This document shows, piece after piece, positions 6,342 through 14,899 of a stretch of 16,219 nucleotides of DNA. A model generated the notes under the pieces. That model searched no databases, had not been told where the DNA came from, and saw only the letters and a program-made list of their open reading frames with translations. Each line of letters begins with the position of its first letter. The stretch's first letter is position 1. Where the stretch lies: the IMG/VR virus record IMGVR_UViG_2537562231_000027, one strand, 5' to 3'. The translations under genes were made by a program, and so were the position numbers. Origin of the DNA: a virus (taxonomy: Duplodnaviria > Heunggongvirae > Uroviricota > Caudoviricetes).

Positions 6342-6561
6342 AGCCACCTCCCAGGCGTTTAAACATTTTTCCGGACTGAAACGCCACTAGTGGGTAACTG
6401 ATGGTGTAGTTACGCCCCAGTAATTCACACACAACTTTCTGGCTTTCGGTGCTGACCAGGCAAACCCGCAGAACGCGACCGTCGCTGGTGGCGAACCACT
6501 GCCCCACACGGGGGCAACGGTTGTGTCGGTGATACAGAGAATTAACGAGGCGGCGAATCAT
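6328..6561 (-). CDS. Hypothetical protein (77 aa)
   Basis: ATG at 6561 with SD GGGAGGTG 6 nt upstream; ATGA overlap with the upstream gene's stop; 3' end overlaps the initiator start by 14 nt. Confidence 0.55.
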   Translation of the reverse strand: MIRRLVNSLYHRHNRCPRVGQWFATSDGRVLRVCLVSTESQKVVCELLGRNYTISYPLVAFQSGKMFKRLGGGYASV

Positions 6562-6920
6562 GGGCGCACCTCCCATTGATTACAGCGGAAAGCTGTATGA
6601 TTCAGGCTGGTTTCAGCTTCATGGAATGCCTCAATGCAGCTCTCGTAGTACCGCATTGTGCGCAGACTTAACCCAAGCTGAAGCATCATCAGGCCATCAA
6701 GAGTGATGTAATAACCACGCAGGGAGTCACCGTAGATGTGATAAGTACCCGGTATGAAATTGCAGGTAAAAAACTCGCGTGAGCAGTTCAGATACTCGAT
6801 TTTGTCAACGATGTTCTGGTGCATTCGCTTAAAGTGGCAGGCAACATGCAGGGAGAAAATAACGGCCTTGCCGTTGACAACTTCAATTTTCAGGTATGGG
6901 GAAGTTGGGACAGTAGCCAT
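6558..6920 (-). CDS. Hypothetical protein (120 aa), Cys/His-containing
   Basis: Internal ATG at 6920 with SD GGAGG 8 nt upstream; product MATVPTSPYLKIEVVNGKAVIFSLHVACHFKRMHQNIVDKIEYLNCS... The track ORF extends to an ATG at 7220 through GC-rich, low-complexity sequence with no RBS. Confidence 0.5.
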   Translation of the reverse strand: MATVPTSPYLKIEVVNGKAVIFSLHVACHFKRMHQNIVDKIEYLNCSREFFTCNFIPGTYHIYGDSLRGYYITLDGLMMLQLGLSLRTMRYYESCIEAFHEAETSLNHTAFRCNQWEVRP

Positions 6921-7085
6921 GATGGCAGCCTCCGTTGACTGTGGAAAACTTCCACCACCGGAGCTGCGAAACTCACTGGTGGCAGACTGAACAGGGTTCG
7001 CAGTACCGGCGTCAACGGAGACCGGCGAGCCTTTCGGCTCCCCTGCCCAGCCCACCATAATTCTGGCGTGCGTGAGCGCGGACGA

Positions 7086-7106
7086 TAAAAAAGACGCTGG
7101 CGCGTC
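7086..7106 (-). terminator. Candidate intrinsic terminator in the early-right operon (tR1-like)
   Basis: Minus-strand RNA reads GACGC-GCCA-GCGTC followed by TTTTTTAT. Short 5-bp GC stem. Confidence 0.4.
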
Positions 7107-7304
7107 ATATATCGCCGTTGACAATTCCGGGCTGCGACCCCCGGCACCCGCTTTATAAGGTGCGGAGACAGTGTAACGTCCCGAAATTGCAGAATCAATA
7201 TTTGGTCTTGAAATGATCATATAGCTGCTGATATCTTTAGAACTGTTCTTGGATGTTTCGGAGCCGTTTTATGCGAAACAGCTCCCCGTTATTGATGTTG
7301 AGTG

Positions 7305-7329
7305 AGCCGGGTTACTCCCGGCTTTTTTT
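7305..7329 (+). terminator. Rho-independent terminator on plus strand, antisense to the early-right operon
   Basis: AGCCGGG-TTACT-CCCGGCT followed by TTTTTTT; the T-run ends at the Rha-like stop codon. No U-tract on the minus strand, so it is unidirectional. Confidence 0.55.
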
Positions 7330-8036
7330 CACCGCTGCCAACCAATAACCTGAAATAACCCCATTTTCGGGTGATACCAGCGAGTCCCTCGCGGTTCTGC
7401 TTCCTCCATAACCCGATAAAAAGCAGCCATAAACGGTTCCACAGCAACAATTGCGCGACGTGACAACAATCCGTCCGGCGTCATGAACTCATGGGTGTCT
7501 GTAGGAATCTGATAGGCGTTCACCAGATTGCGGCATTTATCATCTGACAAACCGGTTTTTGCTTTCAGTTGGCGATATCCGGCATAGCCCTCACGAATAG
7601 TGCCCTTTTTAATTTGCTCGACTGTTTCAGCAACGTGGCTGACTTTTTCTTCCACCTGAGTGATCCGTTTCTGCTGACGAACTGCTTCAAGAGCCATCGC
7701 GGCAACCATTTCGATTTCGCTCATTGGCTTACGGATCTGTTCTTCCAGTTCGCGCCAGCGATCTACCAGGCGAGCAGTGAATTCAGGACAGAGCTGTGCG
7801 ACGACAATGATGCTGTCGCGCTTACCTCGTTCACCTTCGAATACATACGCGCTAGAAAATCGGCGAGGCCCAAGTGATTGTTTATTCTCAATTTCCACAG
7901 TCTGTGGAAATTGGATGATTCCCTTTTTAGCCAGTGTTTCAATAGTTCTCTTAACACTATCTGGTCGGCTTCCCACCAGCTCTGCGATCTCAACGCTGGT
8001 CATGGATGCTTTGCCGTTAAAAATTGCGGTGTTCAT
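7329..8036 (-). CDS. Phage regulatory protein, Rha family
   Basis: N-terminus MTSVEIAELVGSRPDSVKRTIETLAKKG...RLVDRWRELEEQ resembles the Phage_pRha signature. SD AGGAG 7 nt upstream; ATG overlaps the Cro-like stop (ATGA). Confidence 0.8.
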   Translation of the reverse strand: MNTAIFNGKASMTSVEIAELVGSRPDSVKRTIETLAKKGIIQFPQTVEIENKQSLGPRRFSSAYVFEGERGKRDSIIVVAQLCPEFTARLVDRWRELEEQIRKPMSEIEMVAAMALEAVRQQKRITQVEEKVSHVAETVEQIKKGTIREGYAGYRQLKAKTGLSDDKCRNLVNAYQIPTDTHEFMTPDGLLSRRAIVAVEPFMAAFYRVMEEAEPRGTRWYHPKMGLFQVIGWQR

Positions 8037-8323
8037 TGTTTATCTCCTGCGTGTATTCCATCCGCTCTGTGTGGTGAACTTGGATTTAGGCTTTTGCGTA
8101 ACAAGTTAGGAATTCCATCTTCAGGGTGAGGATAAAGATCTGGCCTTAAGCCATGAGGCGTAACCTTCCATGCAACTACTTCACATACTCGTAAAACGAA
8201 ACGAGCAGGAATTGTGCTTTTTGAAAACCACTGATTCACCGCTTGCGGCGTCACACCAAGATTTCGCGCTATGGCATTTTGCGCAATTAATGCACGAAGT
8301 TTGTCGTAATCATTTCCTTCCAT
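8033..8323 (-). CDS. Cro-like HTH regulator (YdaS-type)
   Basis: LIAQNAIARNLGVTPQAVNQWF...LRPDLYP is HTH-like. Divergent from the cI-like gene across a 133-bp regulatory region. Confidence 0.7.
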   Translation of the reverse strand: MEGNDYDKLRALIAQNAIARNLGVTPQAVNQWFSKSTIPARFVLRVCEVVAWKVTPHGLRPDLYPHPEDGIPNLLRKSLNPSSPHRADGIHAGDKQ

Positions 8324-8456
8324 AACAAAGCACCAATATTAACTTTATAAATCAAGAATACATCAAGTTTAAATTAACATGCAAGTTGCAAAAGGATCGA
8401 ATACACTAAAATCAAGTAAAGATTTATCCTTGTAAAGAAACCCACAGGATTTGGTC
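8324..8456. promoter_or_regulatory. Divergent immunity control region (OR-like) between cro-like and cI-like genes
   Basis: AT-rich. Contains three direct ATCAAG motifs, the palindrome TGCAAGTTGCA and the near-palindrome CAAGTAAAGATTTATCCTTG. Individual promoters not confidently resolved. Confidence 0.5.
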
Positions 8457-9146
8457 ATGAAGAACGTCAAAAACACGGAAAATCGAATAGCCGCGATGCT
8501 GAAAGCAAAAGGATGGACTCAGGCTCAACTGGCCCGCAAGTTAGGTGTGAGTGCGCAATCAGTGCAGTACTGGACAACAGGAAAAACATTTCCACGGAGT
8601 GATAAGCTCGCGCATTTATCAGAGATTAGCGGTTATCCACAATCCTGGTTCTTAGGTGAAGACTCCTCACCAACCTTTTCTTCGCAAGAGAAACACCAGA
8701 CAAGAACAGATAGCGTCGTATTTAATGTCCTTGATGTTGAGTTTAGTTGCGGTGATGGAACTCATGTCCGTGGTGACTTGATAGATGTAGTGCGCTCAAT
8801 AGAACTTGATCCTGAATATGCCCGACGTCTTGTTGGAAATCGGGCATTCAAAAATATAGAAATAGGTAACGCCAGAGGAGACAGTATGGCTCCCACAATC
8901 TCACCTGGCGACCTTCTTTTTCTTGATAAGACAGTAACTTATTTTGATGGCGATGGTATTTATGCATTTTGTTTTGATGGAGAATGCTACGTGAAAAGGC
9001 TTCAAAAAATTGGAAGCAAAATCATGGTGTTATCTGATAACCCCAATTATCAACCATGGAGCATCGAAAAAGAGGGGTTAGCTCTGCTTTATATCCAGTC
9101 TAAAGTGATCTCATCAGTACCATTCAACATAAACAGATTTGGTTAG
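8457..9146 (+). CDS. Prophage repressor, cI/LexA-like (N-terminal HTH, C-terminal S24 peptidase)
   Basis: HTH WTQAQLARKLGVSAQSVQYW; S24 motifs GDSMAPTISPGDLLFLDK and YVKRLQK (Ser/Lys dyad). ATG at 8457; the track start at 8451 is a TTG. Confidence 0.85.
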   Translation: MKNVKNTENRIAAMLKAKGWTQAQLARKLGVSAQSVQYWTTGKTFPRSDKLAHLSEISGYPQSWFLGEDSSPTFSSQEKHQTRTDSVVFNVLDVEFSCGDGTHVRGDLIDVVRSIELDPEYARRLVGNRAFKNIEIGNARGDSMAPTISPGDLLFLDKTVTYFDGDGIYAFCFDGECYVKRLQKIGSKIMVLSDNPNYQPWSIEKEGLALLYIQSKVISSVPFNINRFG

Positions 9147-9158
9147 TCTTTGATTTTA

Positions 9159-9180
9159 ACGGGCTTTGCCCGTTTTTTTT
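9159..9180 (+). terminator. Rho-independent terminator after the repressor gene
   Basis: ACGGGC-TTT-GCCCGT followed by eight T residues, 13 nt after the cI-like stop. Confidence 0.7.
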
Positions 9181-9210
9181 CTGCCTGAAATATACGATAT
9201 CAATTTTTTC

Positions 9211-9239
9211 TTGACAGCCTGTTTCCCAAAACATAATAT
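9211..9239 (+). promoter_or_regulatory. Strong sigma70-type promoter (PL-equivalent or accessory-operon promoter)
   Basis: TTGACA (9211-9216), 17-bp spacer, TAATAT (9234-9239). Flanked by dyads ATCAATTTTTTCTTGAC and ATCAATTATAACTTGAT that share ATCAA/TTGAT half-sites with the OR-like region. Confidence 0.6.
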
Positions 9240-9292
9240 CGCACCATCAATTATAACTTGATTTGATTCAATTTAAAATTGTTGGCGGATAT

Positions 9293-9841
9293 ATGAAGAC
9301 ACTAAAAGCAACTCCAGAAACAACTAATTTTATCAACTGCGGCTGTGTTACGCTTAAGGGCTTAGAACTTGATTCCTTTGCATTAAATATTGCAAATTTG
9401 CTAAGTGCTGTACGCACATTCCATCTTCTGGATTGTGCTCGCTCAAAGGAACTGGGCATTGAGGTAATGGAATTTATCCATGAATATGCTCTATCTGCTG
9501 CTTCTCCTGCACAACAAAAACAATCCTTCCCTGAAAGCTGGCTGGTTAACCTTCGCACCCAACGCGAAGCCTGCGGCTTAACAACCGCCGAACTCGCCAG
9601 GCTGCTCGATCTCGATGAAGAAATTATCATCCAGTGGGAGAGCGGAGAGTATGAACCAACTATCAGTATGCTTATCCCACTGGCAAATATTCTTGGCTGC
9701 GATCCGATGTGCCTGTTAACTGGTGAGGTTACTCCTCCGGAGCAACCAAAAAGTGAGGAGCAGCAACACCATGACGCATCTCAACAAGTTTGCCCCTTAT
9801 CTCGCGAAGCTCTTCTGCGGAAGAACCAATACCAATGGTGA
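9293..9841 (+). CDS. Hypothetical protein with C-terminal XRE-type HTH domain (gene A)
   Basis: HTH GLTTAELARLLDLDEEIIIQWESGEYEPTISMLIPLANILGCDPMCLL; N-terminal about 90 aa unrecognised. ATG at 9293; the track start at 9263 is a TTG. Confidence 0.6.
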   Translation: MKTLKATPETTNFINCGCVTLKGLELDSFALNIANLLSAVRTFHLLDCARSKELGIEVMEFIHEYALSAASPAQQKQSFPESWLVNLRTQREACGLTTAELARLLDLDEEIIIQWESGEYEPTISMLIPLANILGCDPMCLLTGEVTPPEQPKSEEQQHHDASQQVCPLSREALLRKNQYQW

Positions 9842-9969
9842 CATAATCGCCGCTTCGCCCTTCAAGGTACATGCGAACATTTTTATCAATCATTGCGGAA
9901 ACAGTCTCAATATGAAAACACTTCTGAGACTCGCTATATAGCAGAACATATAAGTCAGCTGAGGAAGCC

Positions 9970-10335
9970 ATGAAAAAGTTCGAAAACATAACTGTTCTCC
10001 ATGTTGATGACTTTGATTATACAAACCCGGAACTTCTCCCGGAGGTTGTAAAGGCAATAGATGTTGCCGATATAGTGATTAGAGAAAAGAGAATTGTCAA
10101 AAACAGGCTCGCATGCACTTCAGGAGCAATGACAGAAACAACCTCACAGCAAGATAATTACGAAGGCATTTGTCTGGAGCCTGATTCATTTGCGGTAAAT
10201 GTTTATCATTTATTGCATGCAACACAGGTATTACATATGTCCAGTAATCACGAAACGAAAACACTCGGCAGCGAAATTCTGAGTTTTGCATGTGAGTATA
10301 CAAAAGCTGCTGCCGAAAAAGAATTAGCGCAATAA
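9970..10335 (+). CDS. Hypothetical protein (121 aa, gene B)
   Basis: ATG with SD GAGGAAG 5 nt upstream; no recognisable motifs. Confidence 0.6.
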   Translation: MKKFENITVLHVDDFDYTNPELLPEVVKAIDVADIVIREKRIVKNRLACTSGAMTETTSQQDNYEGICLEPDSFAVNVYHLLHATQVLHMSSNHETKTLGSEILSFACEYTKAAAEKELAQ

Positions 10336-10717: not shown

Positions 10718-10792
10718 ATGCAATACACTGAATTCCAGGCTGAAGCAACAGCCGGTAATGACTCCAACTTATTGATAGTGTTTTATGTTTAG
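10718..10792 (+). pseudogene. 5' fragment of IS1-interrupted gene D (12 native codons, then read-through into IS1)
   Basis: ATG at 10718 with SD GAGGAG 8 nt upstream; reading frame enters IS1 at 10754 and stops at 10790-10792. Deleting IS1 plus one target-duplication copy joins it in frame to the ORF at 11552. Confidence 0.6.
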
Positions 10793-11272
10793 ATAATGCC
10801 CGATGACTTTGTCATGCAGCTCCACCGATTTTGAGAACGACAGCGACTTCCGTCCCAGCCGTGCCAGGTGCTGCCTCAGATTCAGGTTATGCCGCTCAAT
10901 TCGCTGCGTATATCGCTTGCTGATTACGTGCAGCTTTCCCTTCAGGCGGGATTCATACAGCGGCCAGCCATCCGTCATCCATATCACCACGTCAAAGGGT
11001 GACAGCAGGCTCATAAGACGCCCCAGCGTCGCCATAGTGCGTTCACCGAATACGTGCGCAACAACCGTCTTCCGGAGCCTGTCATACGCGTAAAACAGCC
11101 AGCGCTGGCGCGATTTAGCCCCGACATAGCCCCACTGTTCGTCCATTTCCGCGCAGACGATGACGTCACTGCCCGGCTGTATGCGCGAGGTTACCGACTG
11201 CGGCCTGAGTTTTTTAAGTGACGTAAAATCGTGTTGAGGCCAACGCCCATAATGCGGGCGGTTGCCCGGCAT
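10769..11272 (-). CDS. insB: IS1 InsB reading frame (made as an InsAB' fusion by -1 frameshift)
   Basis: Canonical InsB-frame sequence ...[49 protein letters not shown]... Confidence 0.9.
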
Positions 11273-11466
11273 CCAACGCCATTCATGGCCATATCAATGA
11301 TTTTCTGGTGCGTACCGGGTTGAGAAGCGGTGTAAGTGAACTGCAGTTGCCATGTTTTACGGCAGTGAGAGCAGAGATAGCGCTGATGTCCGGCAGTGCT
11401 TTTGCCGTTACGCACCACCCCGTCAGTAGCTGAACAGGAGGGACAGCTGATAGAAACAGAAGCCAC
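11191..11466 (-). CDS. insA: IS1 InsA
   Basis: [43 protein letters not shown]... (91 aa); ends at the A6C frameshift motif. Confidence 0.9.
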
Positions 11467-11551
11467 TGGAGCACCTCAAAAACACCATCATACACTAAAT
11501 CAGTAAGTTGGCAGCATCACCGCAACAGCCACAGGTATACGAACTGGCAGT

Positions 11552-12067: not shown

Positions 12068-12263
12068 CACATTAAATATTAAGAGGAATATAATTCTTCC
12101 GTTTTTTACTAACCGTTTATATGAAAAGCAACCGTGACTTAAGCAGAGTAAAACTGCTTTTAATCCTTGCCACAGTACTGACAATAACAGAAATCATTAT
12201 TCTCTTTAGGTGATGCTGCCAACTTACTGATTTAGTGTATGATGGTGTTTTTGAGGTGCTCCA

Positions 12264-12539
12264 GTGGCTTCTGTTTCTATCAGCTGTCCCTCCTGTTCAG
12301 CTACTGACGGGGTGGTGCGTAACGGCAAAAGCACTGCCGGACATCAGCGCTATCTCTGCTCTCACTGCCGTAAAACATGGCAACTGCAGTTCACTTACAC
12401 CGCTTCTCAACCCGGTACGCACCAGAAAATCATTGATATGGCCATGAATGGCGTTGGATGCCGGGCAACCGCCCGCATTATGGGCGTTGGCCTCAACACG
12501 ATTTTCCGCCATTTAAAAAACTCAGGCCGCAGTCGGTAA
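12264..12539 (+). CDS. insA: IS1 InsA (variant)
   Basis: 91 aa; differs from copy 1 by L to F in ...[14 protein letters not shown]; A6C frameshift motif at 12515-12521. Confidence 0.9.
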
Positions 12540-12961
12540 CCTCGCGCATACAGCCGGGCAGTGACGTCATCGTCTGCGCGGAAATGGACGAACAGTGGGG
12601 CTACGTCGGTGCTAAATCACGTCAGCGCTGGCTGTTTTACGCGTATGACAGGATACGGAGGACAGTTGTGGCGCACGTTTTCGGTGAACGCACTCTGGCC
12701 ACACTGGAGCGTCTTCTGAGCCTGCTGTCGGCCTTTGAGGTCGTGGTATGGATGACGGATGGCTGGCCGCTGTATGAATCACGCCTGAAGGGAAAGCTGC
12801 ACGTTATCAGCAAGCGTTACACTCAGCGCATTGAGCGACATAATCTGAATCTGAGACAACATCTGGCAAGGCTGGGACGGAAGTCGCTGTCGTTCTCAAA
12901 ATCGGTGGAGCTGCATGACAAGGTCATCGGGCATTATCTGAACATAAAACACTATCAGTAA
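12458..12961 (+). CDS. insB: IS1 InsB reading frame (variant)
   Basis: InsB frame with substitutions relative to copy 1 (IRR versus [22 protein letters not shown] versus [19 protein letters not shown]). Confidence 0.9.
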
Positions 12962-13028
12962 GTTGGAGTCACTACCTTCTCTTTATTGCGCTGTCTGTCA
13001 GTTAAAAATATCGGGATACCACATACCA

Positions 13029-14644: not shown

Positions 14645-14899
14645 ATGCAGACAATCATCTATCAGATAACCCCCAGCAAATGGTGTACGGAGAGAGTCCT
14701 CATTGCATCAACAGGGCTAAAGCCTGGCACCATCGAGCGAGCCAGAAGAAAGTCATGGATGCAGGGAAAAGAATACCGCCATTACGCTGTAGAAGGTGAT
14801 CCGGGGCATTACAGTGAATGCCTGTACAACATCGAAGAAATTATGCGATGGATCGAAAACCAGAAACAACCAGGTGCCAAAAATGCAAGTTCCGGTTAA
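14645..14899 (+). CDS. Excisionase-like protein (DUF1233-type putative Xis)
   Basis: ITPSKWCTERVLIASTGLKPGTIERARRKSWMQGKEYRHY resembles excisionase-like proteins found upstream of prophage integrases. SD GAGG 5 nt upstream. Confidence 0.7.
   Translation: MQTIIYQITPSKWCTERVLIASTGLKPGTIERARRKSWMQGKEYRHYAVEGDPGHYSECLYNIEEIMRWIENQKQPGAKNASSG

Follow-up and report, generated by a model that had tools for sequence, protein, structure and literature searches.

A predicted operator family common to the cI/cro promoters and the promoter downstream of cI in a lambdoid Escherichia coli prophage

The ATCAA/TTGAT motifs on either side of the cI gene of this prophage are very probably operator sites, as predicted here, of an ordinary lambda-like prophage switch. 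Five imperfect dyads of 17 bp, with the consensus ATCAA(G/T)-N5-(C/A)TT(G/T)A(T/C) across 81 loci, occupy conserved positions: three lie between cro and cI (OR1, OR2 and OR3) and two around the promoter whose -35 hexamer begins at 9211 (OL2 and OL1). In each dyad the half-sites are one helical turn apart. The window (the whole 16.2-kb stretch of DNA analysed) is from a lambdoid E. coli prophage and is 99.4% identical to the inducible phage PhiR49_2 over positions 8000-9900. PhiR49_2 is carried by ECOR13, and strain B19374 matches the window at 100% identity over 8030-9300. Its gene order comprises divergent cro and cI, a terminator, the 9211 promoter and a string of + strand genes that runs up to an excisionase (DUF1233, 2e-29) and an integrase (Table 1). 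A Roi/Rha-like gene follows cro. Of 5426 complete E. coli genomes, 142 carried this immunity type, with Stx2a- and Stx2d-converting phages of non-O157 STEC among its carriers, and a full-text literature search for its operator strings returned no match.

Table 1. Features of the immunity region; scores out of 12 are matches to ATCAAG-N5-CTTGAT.
Feature	Position	Strand	Sequence	Details
cro-like gene, 96 aa	8033-8323	-		YdaS/Cro-type HTH; Pfam YdaS_toxin 1.4e-12, P22_Cro 1e-4
OR1 (predicted)	8332-8348		ACCAATATTAACTTTAT	9/12; about +1 to +17 of putative PR
Non-conserved ATCAAG	8351-8356	+	ATCAAG	In OR1-OR2 spacer; overlaps end of PR -10
Putative PR -10	8355-8360	-	TATTCT	By conservation
OR2 (predicted)	8362-8378		ATCAAGTTTAAATTAAC	Fills PR spacer; abuts PRM -35
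Shared hexamer	8379-8384	+ / -	ATGCAA / TTGCAT	PRM -35 position on +; PR -35 on -
Putative PRM -10	8402-8407	+	TACACT	By conservation
OR3 (predicted)	8411-8427		ATCAAGTAAAGATTTAT	10/12; about -3 to +14 of putative PRM; 49-50 bp from OR2 in 81 loci
cI repressor, 229 aa	8457-9146	+		Pfam Peptidase_S24 4e-17, HTH_3 5e-8; PHROG 4
Intrinsic terminator after cI	9158-9182	+	AACGGGC-TTT-GCCCGTT + T run	Terminator scan
OL2 (predicted)	9199-9215		ATCAATTTTTTCTTGAC	10/12; right half supplies PL -35
PL-equivalent promoter (putative)	9211-9239	+	TTGACA (9211-9216), 17 nt, TAATAT (9234-9239)	Promoter scan 10/12
OL1 (predicted)	9246-9262		ATCAATTATAACTTGAT	11/12; about +1 to +17 of PL; 6 nt past -10
Candidate weak third OL dyad	9267-9283		TTCAATTTAAAATTGTT	8/12; 21 bp from OL1; from dyad enumeration
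Gene A, phiP27 L10-like, 182 aa	9293-9841	+		HTH_3 (Pfam 3e-10); first gene of putative PL operon

The decisive evidence for such a predicted operator family is its conservation across relatives. The comparison set consisted of 81 related immunity regions with 19 distinct site combinations, cI 74-100% identical and at least eight sub-lineages; promoter hexamers, OR half-sites and the Cro helix were checked in nine lineage representatives. A motif search across these related prophages recovered the five dyads in all 81 homologous regions at constant centre-to-centre spacing (OR1-OR2 30-31 bp, OR2-OR3 49-50 bp, OL2-OL1 47-48 bp); in the underlying site table, the entries for OR1, OR3 and OL2 were each chosen as the best match in a narrow interval, so that the logo is skewed toward the consensus. 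The same dyads at fixed positions in both regions agree with the proposal of the preliminary description that a single repressor specificity, of cI and/or Cro, serves the two. Among the nine representatives, two of the 12 half-site columns of OR3 were variable as against all five of its central columns, and for OR2, whose half-sites were invariant in 9/9, the figures were none of 12 and three of five. Distant relatives carry perfect palindromes of the form ATCAAGTTTAACTTGA(T/C) at the OL positions. In those relatives with perfect 17-bp palindromes at both OL positions, cI is only 74-80% identical and the DNA between has diverged beyond recognition.

Chance occurrence was assessed by scoring sites out of 12 against ATCAAG-N5-CTTGAT, with Markov-1 shuffles as the expectation. 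Four sites of at least 10/12 were found in the window against 0.9 expected, three of them within the two intergenic regions, and at this threshold the complete 41-kb PhiR49_2 genome contains OL1, OL2 and OR3 only. None of 5000 shuffles of the OL region held two sites of at least 10/12, and none of 5000 shuffles of the OR region held three of at least 9/12. The weak matches in the window are OR1 and OR2 (9/12 each), and in the Stx2-phage lineage OR1 reaches only 7/12. The pattern ATCAA-N7-TTGA[TC] occurs in the window only at 9199-9215 and 9246-9262, and ATCAAG occurs five times, three of them at 8351, 8362 and 8411. A de novo enumeration of dyads in the window alone (6-mer halves, spacers of 0-12, up to three mismatches) ranked ATCAAT-N5-ATTGAT joint first with seven matches, which is not above shuffles (mean 5.7, maximum 10); this count was dropped as evidence because it fell within the shuffle range. 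The pattern that tied with it for first place was a T-run artefact.

The preliminary description had read the cro-cI intergenic region as three direct ATCAAG motifs plus palindromes, a reading that, on comparison with the relatives, is wrong in detail. All three motifs are present, and those at 8362 and 8411 stand as parts of OR2 and OR3. The third, at 8351, is not conserved: close relatives have AACACAAG, containing ACACAAG (L012/L014), ATCAAA (L013) or TTCAAG (phi467), and it is absent from L005-L007, L080 and L087. It was rejected as an operator half-site, being variable even among relatives with 98-100% identical cI. The palindromes TGCAAGTTGCA (8380-8390) and CAAG..CTTG (8413-8432) likewise exist as strings, and both were rejected as operators on the grounds that their right arms are not conserved. 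All that is kept of TGCAAGTTGCA is ATGCAAG, which holds its left arm and is invariant in all lineages, the sequence beyond diverging. OR1 had been overlooked. A dyad lies 30-31 bp from OR2 in 81/81 loci, as exemplified by ATCAAGCTATAATTGAT (L005), ATAAAGTATAACTTGAT (L080) and ACCAATATTAACTTGAT (L012).

Neither PR nor PRM was picked up by a standard promoter scan, and both are placed by conservation only. The putative PR -10 is a TAnnnT hexamer (TATTCT, TAATCT, TAACCT, TATTAT or TATCCT) found in every lineage 16-18 nt past the invariant TTGCAT, an arrangement valid in 9/9 lineages, and OR1 begins 6-9 nt after this hexamer in all of them. A different PR, with its -35 (TTGATG) inside OR2 and its -10 inside OR1, was rejected; the -10 that this would imply, GTTAAT in the window, has no A as its second base and varies among relatives. 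For PRM, the hexamer TA(C/A)A(C/A)T follows ATGCAA by exactly 17 nt in 9/9 lineages across spacers that diverge, and it ends 3-4 nt ahead of OR3 in the nine lineages.

The 17-bp dyads that had been reported to flank the 9211 promoter, one overlapping the -35 and the other just past the -10, proved to be position-conserved. In L005-L007, L080 and L087 the OL2 position is occupied by ATCAAGTTTAACTTGAC, always 47-48 bp from OL1. The OL1 position is the perfect palindrome ATCAAGTTTAACTTGAT in L005-L007 and L080 and ATCAAGTAAATCTTGAT in L087, where the centre has changed from TTTAA to TAAAT and the half-sites are intact. In every lineage a TAnnnT -10 lies beyond TTGAC(A/G/T), and OL1 begins 6 nt past it in most and 8 nt past it in L007. 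PR and PL are alike in geometry (-10, 6 nt, operator) in the window and most lineages. The terminator hairpin after cI is kept in L005-L007, L080 and L087 and is absent in the Stx2-phage and phi467 lineages. The candidate third OL dyad, which reads GTTAATTTTAAATTGAT in phi467, is restricted to gene-A-bearing lineages; it is weak and may be a chance product. Two further candidates in this stretch were rejected. An antisense promoter from 9277 to 9250 (TTTAAA-16-TATAAT) has the OL1 centre as its -10 and is not conserved where that centre is TTTAA. For a YdaT site, given for CP-933P in one report as TTGATT-N6-AATCAA (PMC9986795), the window lacks a YdaT gene and offers no more than a partial match (4/6) at 9258-9275.

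Both candidate regulators are well marked. The cro-like product belongs to PHROG 35 (transcriptional repressor) and is annotated Cro in PhiR49_2; its recognition helix, (T/S)PQAVNQWF, is invariant in nine lineages. The cI protein, annotated as cI in the same phage, has a C-terminal domain that aligns to UmuD/LexA, and its N-terminal domain gives a weak match to the 434 repressor (E 0.0095). EFSCGDG, GDSM (Ser143), KRL (K180) and the helix GV(S/T)AQ(S/T)V.YWT are invariant in cI, and its Cys-Gly pair we take to be the putative cleavage site by analogy with UmuD Cys24-Gly25. The helices of cI and Cro are themselves alike (BLAST 42% over 26 aa, E 3e-4). Across lineages with the operator family the cI helix, VSAQSVQYWT, and the Cro helix are essentially invariant. 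The operators are co-inherited with both recognition helices; in phiP27, where cI is another one, the repeats differ too. CTTGAT also occurs four times inside cI (8730, 8777, 8805 and 8922); these copies were rejected as operators, none lying in a 17-bp dyad. Three are Leu-Asp codons (CTT GAT) and the copy at 8777 spans Asp-Leu-Ile.

Judged from sequence comparison, a lambdoid immunity switch with one operator family for cI and Cro is highly likely to be the explanation. Both cI and the YdaS-type Cro would recognise the 17-bp imperfect dyad. OR1 would lie over the PR start region, OR2 in the PR spacer abutting a weak PRM -35, and OR3 over the PRM start, and past the cI terminator OL2 would cover the -35 of a strong promoter with OL1 at its presumed +1 to +17. 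In the lysogen, cI at OL1/OL2 and OR1/OR2 would shut PL and PR, cI at OR2 would probably stimulate PRM, and OR3 would provide negative autoregulation. RecA-stimulated cleavage of cI would allow PL to fire into gene A, L08 and onward toward xis/int, and Cro would then bind the same sites. The binding, its order of occupancy, the activation of PRM and the exact transcription starts are inferred, whereas the sites, their conservation and geometry and their co-inheritance with cI and Cro are observed. The occupancy logic is not transferable from lambda because the spacings (30-31, 49-50 and 47-48 bp) differ from the ~23-25 bp of adjacent sites in lambda cooperativity. Each lytic promoter is bracketed by two non-adjacent operators, 30 bp apart at PR and 47 bp (~4.5 helical turns) apart at PL. 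Repression could conceivably depend not on lambda-type adjacent-dimer cooperativity but on a promoter-embracing micro-loop, or on non-cooperative binding as in 933W, together with a short 0.86-kb OL-OR loop, and with gene A perhaps as a third player via the weak third dyad; we regard this version as unlikely.

That only one regulator, cI or Cro, uses the OL sites, without full lambda-like dual control, is decidedly unlikely. To our knowledge, the lambdoid switches characterised so far (lambda, 434, P22) all have repressor and Cro binding to one operator family, which counts against a single regulator, as does the pattern xxQxVxxW common to the two recognition helices here. What keeps this reading alive is that cI and Cro are both co-inherited with the sites, and inseparable by computation, and that in CP-933P the footprints of the YdaS-type Cro and of PaaR2 overlap without being identical, PR and PRM being repressed to different degrees (PMC8630535).

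The dyads at the 9211 promoter had alternatively been ascribed to autoregulation by gene A, which would make the operon cI-independent and possibly lysogen-expressed. Gene A is the first gene past the dyads, has a good HTH_3 domain that is distantly similar to that of cI (31% over 67 aa) and falls in PHROG 4836, labelled 'CII-like regulator' (4e-77). However, the dyads persist without it. L005, L006, L007, L080 and L087 retain both OL dyads in perfect form; the first downstream gene of L005-L007, when translated, has no similarity to gene A, and that of L005 and L007 has no HTH PHROG match. Conversely, L10 of phiP27, which follows a different cI (L11), has an HTH domain 77% identical to that of gene A over 81 aa, yet the phiP27 immunity region has no site of at least 9/12, and its upstream repeats are of another type (GTATCA). 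Moreover, three copies of the motif lie in OR, a region in which no role for gene A is evident. Autoregulation by gene A at these sites is accordingly disfavoured and appears very improbable. A negligible probability attaches to there being no common operator, the motifs arising from promoter elements and a high A+T content (CTTGAC as a -35, ATCAA by chance): the right half of OL2 is indeed a -35, the intergenic regions are ~70% A+T and the lax window-only count is not above shuffles, but conservation contradicts it, since OL1, although not part of the core promoter, is perfectly palindromic over its 17 bp in five lineages and spacings are constant though the surrounding DNA diverges, and so do the strict-threshold shuffles (0/5000) and the lack of any other site of at least 10/12 in the 41-kb phage.

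Because the dyads travel with cI and Cro and not with gene A, the view of the 9211 promoter as a putative OL/PL equivalent, already put forward in the preliminary description, is supported: it heads an early-left operon of + strand genes that ends in xis/int. It is almost certainly off in the lysogen, because the 17-bp site is common to the cI/cro promoters and the 9211 promoter. The genes past it (gene A, L08 and onward) would thus form a repressor-controlled early-left operon and not a lysogen-expressed accessory cassette. The operator consensus now defined for this immunity type should aid prediction of heteroimmunity and superinfection immunity among these prophages, and be of use in planning induction or reporter assays. 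The PhiR49_2, phi467 and Stx2_14040 types would be expected to be homoimmune, as they have half-sites and recognition helices in common. In conceptual terms, little is added to the lambda paradigm.

Among known systems, P22 c2 and 434 cI are likewise HTH repressors of dyads in which roughly one helical turn separates the half-sites and the AT-rich centre is not contacted; their operators, of 18 bp and 14 bp, differ from the predicted ones in both length and sequence, the P22 half-site ...TTAAG resembling TCAAG. CP-933P / Sp12 (PaaR2, YdaS, YdaT) also has a YdaS-family protein as Cro analogue, and its PR, PRM and PL analogues, shown experimentally, are cross-regulated by repressor and YdaS (PMC8630535). 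It differs in that PaaR2 is reportedly dissimilar in sequence to lambda CI, whereas the window repressor is of the cI type (HTH + S24); in its 18-bp palindromic operators with half-site GTTTAGTAA; in its leaderless paaR2; and in having YdaT where the window has the Roi/Rha-like gene after cro. The switch of the Stx2 phage 933W, likewise lambdoid, has three OR sites but lacks OL3 (PMC3317979), the same 3+2 layout as predicted here. The repressor specificity and sequence of 933W are different, and its non-cooperativity is an experimental finding. Compared with lambda, the operator sequence is unrelated and Cro is of another fold family (YdaS-type HTH). OL has two clear sites where lambda has three, the centre-to-centre spacings are 30, 49-50 and 47 bp as against ~23-24 bp, and OL and OR are separated by ~0.86 kb as against 2.3 kb. 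A leader bearing a Shine-Dalgarno sequence precedes the window cI, a terminator comes directly after it and rex genes are absent; nor was an N gene recognised in the window, the first PL gene encoding an HTH protein. The architecture is nevertheless that of lambda: divergent cI (HTH + S24-type cleavage domain) and cro, three predicted 17-bp imperfect dyads between them over back-to-back PR and PRM, OR2 abutting a weak PRM -35, and the same operator family at a promoter past cI, oriented as cI and apparently driving an early-left operon toward xis/int.

The window's 8000-9900 region shares 99.4% identity with Escherichia phage PhiR49_2 (host E. coli ECOR13), and the annotated gene order of that phage is the gene order of the window (see table). 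The window is a lambdoid prophage that runs in reverse relative to the lambda map, and the promoter just 3′ of cI, pointing in the same direction as cI, holds the place of lambda PL.

Features of the immunity region and flanking genes (1-based window coordinates)
Feature	Position	Strand	Sequence or remarks
Q and replication genes		-	order as annotated in PhiR49_2
Roi/Rha-like gene	7329-8036	-	
cro	8033-8323	-	YdaS/Cro-type HTH protein
OR1	8332-8348		ACCAATATTAACTTTAT
Putative PR -10	8360 to 8355	-	TATTCT; from conservation
OR2	8362-8378		ATCAAGTTTAAATTAAC
Putative PRM -10	8402-8407	+	TACACT; from conservation
OR3	8411-8427		ATCAAGTAAAGATTTAT
cI	8457-9146	+	HTH_3 and Peptidase_S24
OL2	9199-9215		ATCAATTTTTTCTTGAC; overlaps TTGACA (9211-9216)
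OL1	9246-9262		ATCAATTATAACTTGAT; TAATAT (9234-9239) six bases earlier
Gene A	9293-9841	+	phiP27-type L10
L08	9970-10335	+	small genes follow
Excisionase	14645-14899	+	end of gene string; DUF1233, 2e-29
Integrase	14933 onward	+	end of gene string

The preliminary description had proposed that ATCAA/TTGAT half-sites are shared between the cro-cI intergenic region and this promoter, and all strings it quoted were found in the window: ATCAAG at 8351, 8362 and 8411 (three of five window copies), TGCAAGTTGCA at 8380-8390, CAAG..CTTG at 8413-8432, and the two dyads at PL. No further copy of ATCAA-N7-TTGA(T/C) exists in the window beyond those two dyads. When dyads were scored against ATCAAG-N5-CTTGAT, four sites matched at least 10 of the 12 half-site positions (0.9 expected), three of them in the two intergenic regions, and the observed counts were reached in 0/5000 shuffles of each region. 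In the full 41-kb PhiR49_2 genome only OL1, OL2 and OR3 reach this threshold. A lax, unbiased dyad enumeration of the window alone placed ATCAAT-N5-ATTGAT joint first, level with a T-run artefact; its 7 hits are not above shuffles for AT-rich DNA and the window alone is therefore not compelling. All six CTTGAT copies in the window lie within 8730-9368 (640 bp). Four are inside cI (8730, 8777, 8805 and 8922), three as Leu-Asp codon pairs and that at 8777 spanning Asp-Leu-Ile; none of the four is in a 17-bp dyad, and the clustering is probably coincidence.

Relatives comprised Stx2a/Stx2d-converting phages (cI 93-94% identical) and phi467 (88%) from GenBank, three GTDB genomes (Pseudocitrobacter, an Enterobacteriaceae MAG and Citrobacter youngae; cI 74-79%) and 80 IMG/VR contigs, including two more lineages at about 80% (the L080 group and L087/L088). 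The immunity region was also found in 142/5426 complete E. coli genomes. Distant lineages carry two perfect 17-bp palindromes 3′ of cI, of which ATCAAGTTTAACTTGAC is positioned over the -35 and ATCAAGTTTAACTTGAT (ATCAAGTAAATCTTGAT in L087) starts 6-8 nt past the -10, while the DNA between and around them is almost completely diverged. With all loci aligned by the invariant OR2, the motifs proved to be conserved as five dyads whose spacing is constant across 81 loci, representing 19 distinct combinations: 30-31 bp for OR1-OR2, 49-50 bp for OR2-OR3 and 47-48 bp for OL2-OL1. The pooled matrix is A-T-C-A-A-(G/T)-N5-(C/A)-T-T-(G/T/A)-A-(T/C), somewhat biased to consensus because, for OR1, OR3 and OL2, the best-matching dyad was taken from positions up to a few bases either side of the one expected. 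Half-site columns are much better conserved than the five centre columns; variable columns number 2/12 against 5/5 in OR3 and 0/12 against 3/5 in OR2.

A closer inspection revealed that the preliminary description was right about the strings and the OL dyads but not about every proposed operator. Of its three direct ATCAAG repeats, two form the left half-sites of OR2 and OR3. The remaining copy (8351) falls in the spacer from OR1 to OR2; it differs even between phages whose cI is 98-100% identical (AACACAAG, ATCAAA, TTCAAG) and is absent from distant lineages. Nor do the two supposed palindromes hold as operators: only the ATGCAAG part of the 8380-8390 string is invariant, the bases after it not being conserved, and CAAG lacks a conserved CTTG partner. 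The real third site, OR1, had been overlooked because it is degenerate in E. coli lineages (9/12; 10/12 in loci L012/L014 and 7/12 in the Stx2 lineage).

PRM and PR were inferred from conservation across nine lineage representatives, and their starts are predicted. For PRM, all nine representatives have TA(C/A)A(C/A)T exactly 17 nt beyond an invariant ATGCAA (8379-8384), although the spacers differ, and OR3 begins 3-4 nt beyond this -10. Since the -10 closely precedes OR3 and ATGCAA lies beside OR2, OR3 would cover the PRM start and OR2 would adjoin a weak -35. The geometry of OR2/PRM activation in lambda is similar. On the opposite strand the same hexamer reads TTGCAT, with TAnnnT 16-18 nt beyond in every lineage and OR1 starting 6-9 nt past this putative PR -10. 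OR2 would thus occupy the PR spacer and OR1 would span about +1 to +17 of the predicted PR. PL is predicted to consist of TTGACA, 17 nt, TAATAT, 6 nt and OL1, and shares with PR the arrangement of -10, six bases, operator.

The cI recognition region GV(S/T)AQ(S/T)V.YWT is essentially invariant in all lineages with the operator family, as is that of Cro, (T/S)PQAVNQWF, and the two helices resemble one another. Judged by sequence, the candidate operators are co-inherited with cI and Cro, not with gene A. It is unlikely that the OL dyads are instead autoregulatory sites of the gene A HTH protein, because they persist without gene A and are missing in phiP27. In L005-L007, three distant loci, the first PL gene has no resemblance to gene A, and those of L005 and L007 match no HTH PHROG family, yet the dyads are perfect. 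Conversely, phiP27 L10 has the gene A HTH domain (77% over 81 aa) but lies behind a different cI (L11), and in the two intergenic regions of the phiP27 immunity locus the repeats are of the GTATCA type and no dyad scores 9/12 or more. With conserved dyads at both OR and PL, we consider it highly probable that a shared repressor would act at both and that the 9211 promoter would be a PL equivalent and stay off in the lysogen. Both cI and Cro probably occupy OL, judging by the lambdoid switches already characterised and by CP-933P, whose switch is of the YdaS type (PMC8630535). Downstream of OL1, at a distance of 21 bp, is a weak dyad, TTCAATTTAAAATTGTT (8/12; 9267-9283), which holds the perfect palindrome CAATTT-A-AAATTG. 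It is found only in gene A-carrying lineages, and its phi467 counterpart (GTTAATTTTAAATTGAT) has a sequence similar to the reverse complement of OR2. The dyad may be either a third OL site or an element specific to gene A.

Between cI and PL, the window and most lineages have a strong terminator (9158-9174 in the window, followed by a T run). The Stx2-phage and phi467 lineages are without this hairpin and have a lone extra ATCAAG half-site upstream of OL2 (about 4095-4110 in L002/L003 and about 4086-4092 in L004; AAAAATCAAGTTTATCAAT; ACAAATCAAGTAAAAG). In these lineages transcription from PRM may run on into the PL region, or a remnant of OL3 may be present. Within the PL operon, two inverted IS1 copies lie between L08 and xis/int (10747-11528 and 12202-12983; transposase ORFs 10769-11272 (-) and 12458-12961 (+)), with 782-nt, 94% complementary arms around a 673-bp phage segment. 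A polar effect on PL transcription is likely and, as the copies interrupt the operon, transcription may reach xis/int inefficiently even once derepressed; the prophage may be excision-defective. PhiR49_2 appears IS1-free there, no transposase being annotated in its record. A domain of unknown function is common to the adjacent gene A and L08 (gene A residues 24-70 against L08 residues 69-115, 43% identity, E 7e-9; PHROGs 4587, 5451), and the Stx2-phage gene A has a second HTH domain. An unannotated 86-aa antisense ORF (9729-9989, -) overlaps the gene A 3′ end and the interval between gene A and L08; Pfam gave no match for it, and it shows no resemblance to phiP27 L09, whose antisense position is comparable.

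On the other side of cro, Rfam gathering-level matches to C4 antisense RNA (6975-7062 (-), 78.8 bits) and the Hfq-binding sRNA isrK (7087-7163 (-), 58.7 bits) lie at the 5′ part of a mechanical ORF (6558-7220) with Ash and Rha domains. This looks like an antisense-RNA-controlled antirepressor of the P1 immI/Gifsy isrK type in the early-right operon, a second immunity layer. Just downstream of the Roi/Rha-like gene in minus-strand terms is a hairpin resembling a strong terminator, GAGCCGGGTTACTCCCGGC followed by seven T (about 7304-7330, +), which may work in both directions between roi and the C4/isrK module.

The operator set of this immunity type appears new to the literature, since its sequences gave no match in the papers searched; the kind of switch is thoroughly known. 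On its sequence-level defining features it is predicted to be functionally lambda-type: cI and cro are divergent, a tripartite OR overlaps promoters placed back to back, and operators of the same family recur at PL. In contrast to lambda, the operators are widely spaced and non-adjacent, Cro is of the YdaS family, cI is leadered, rex and a recognisable N gene are absent, and the first PL gene encodes an HTH 'CII-like' protein. OL has two clear sites where lambda has three, which resembles 933W, a phage that lacks OL3 (PMC3317979).
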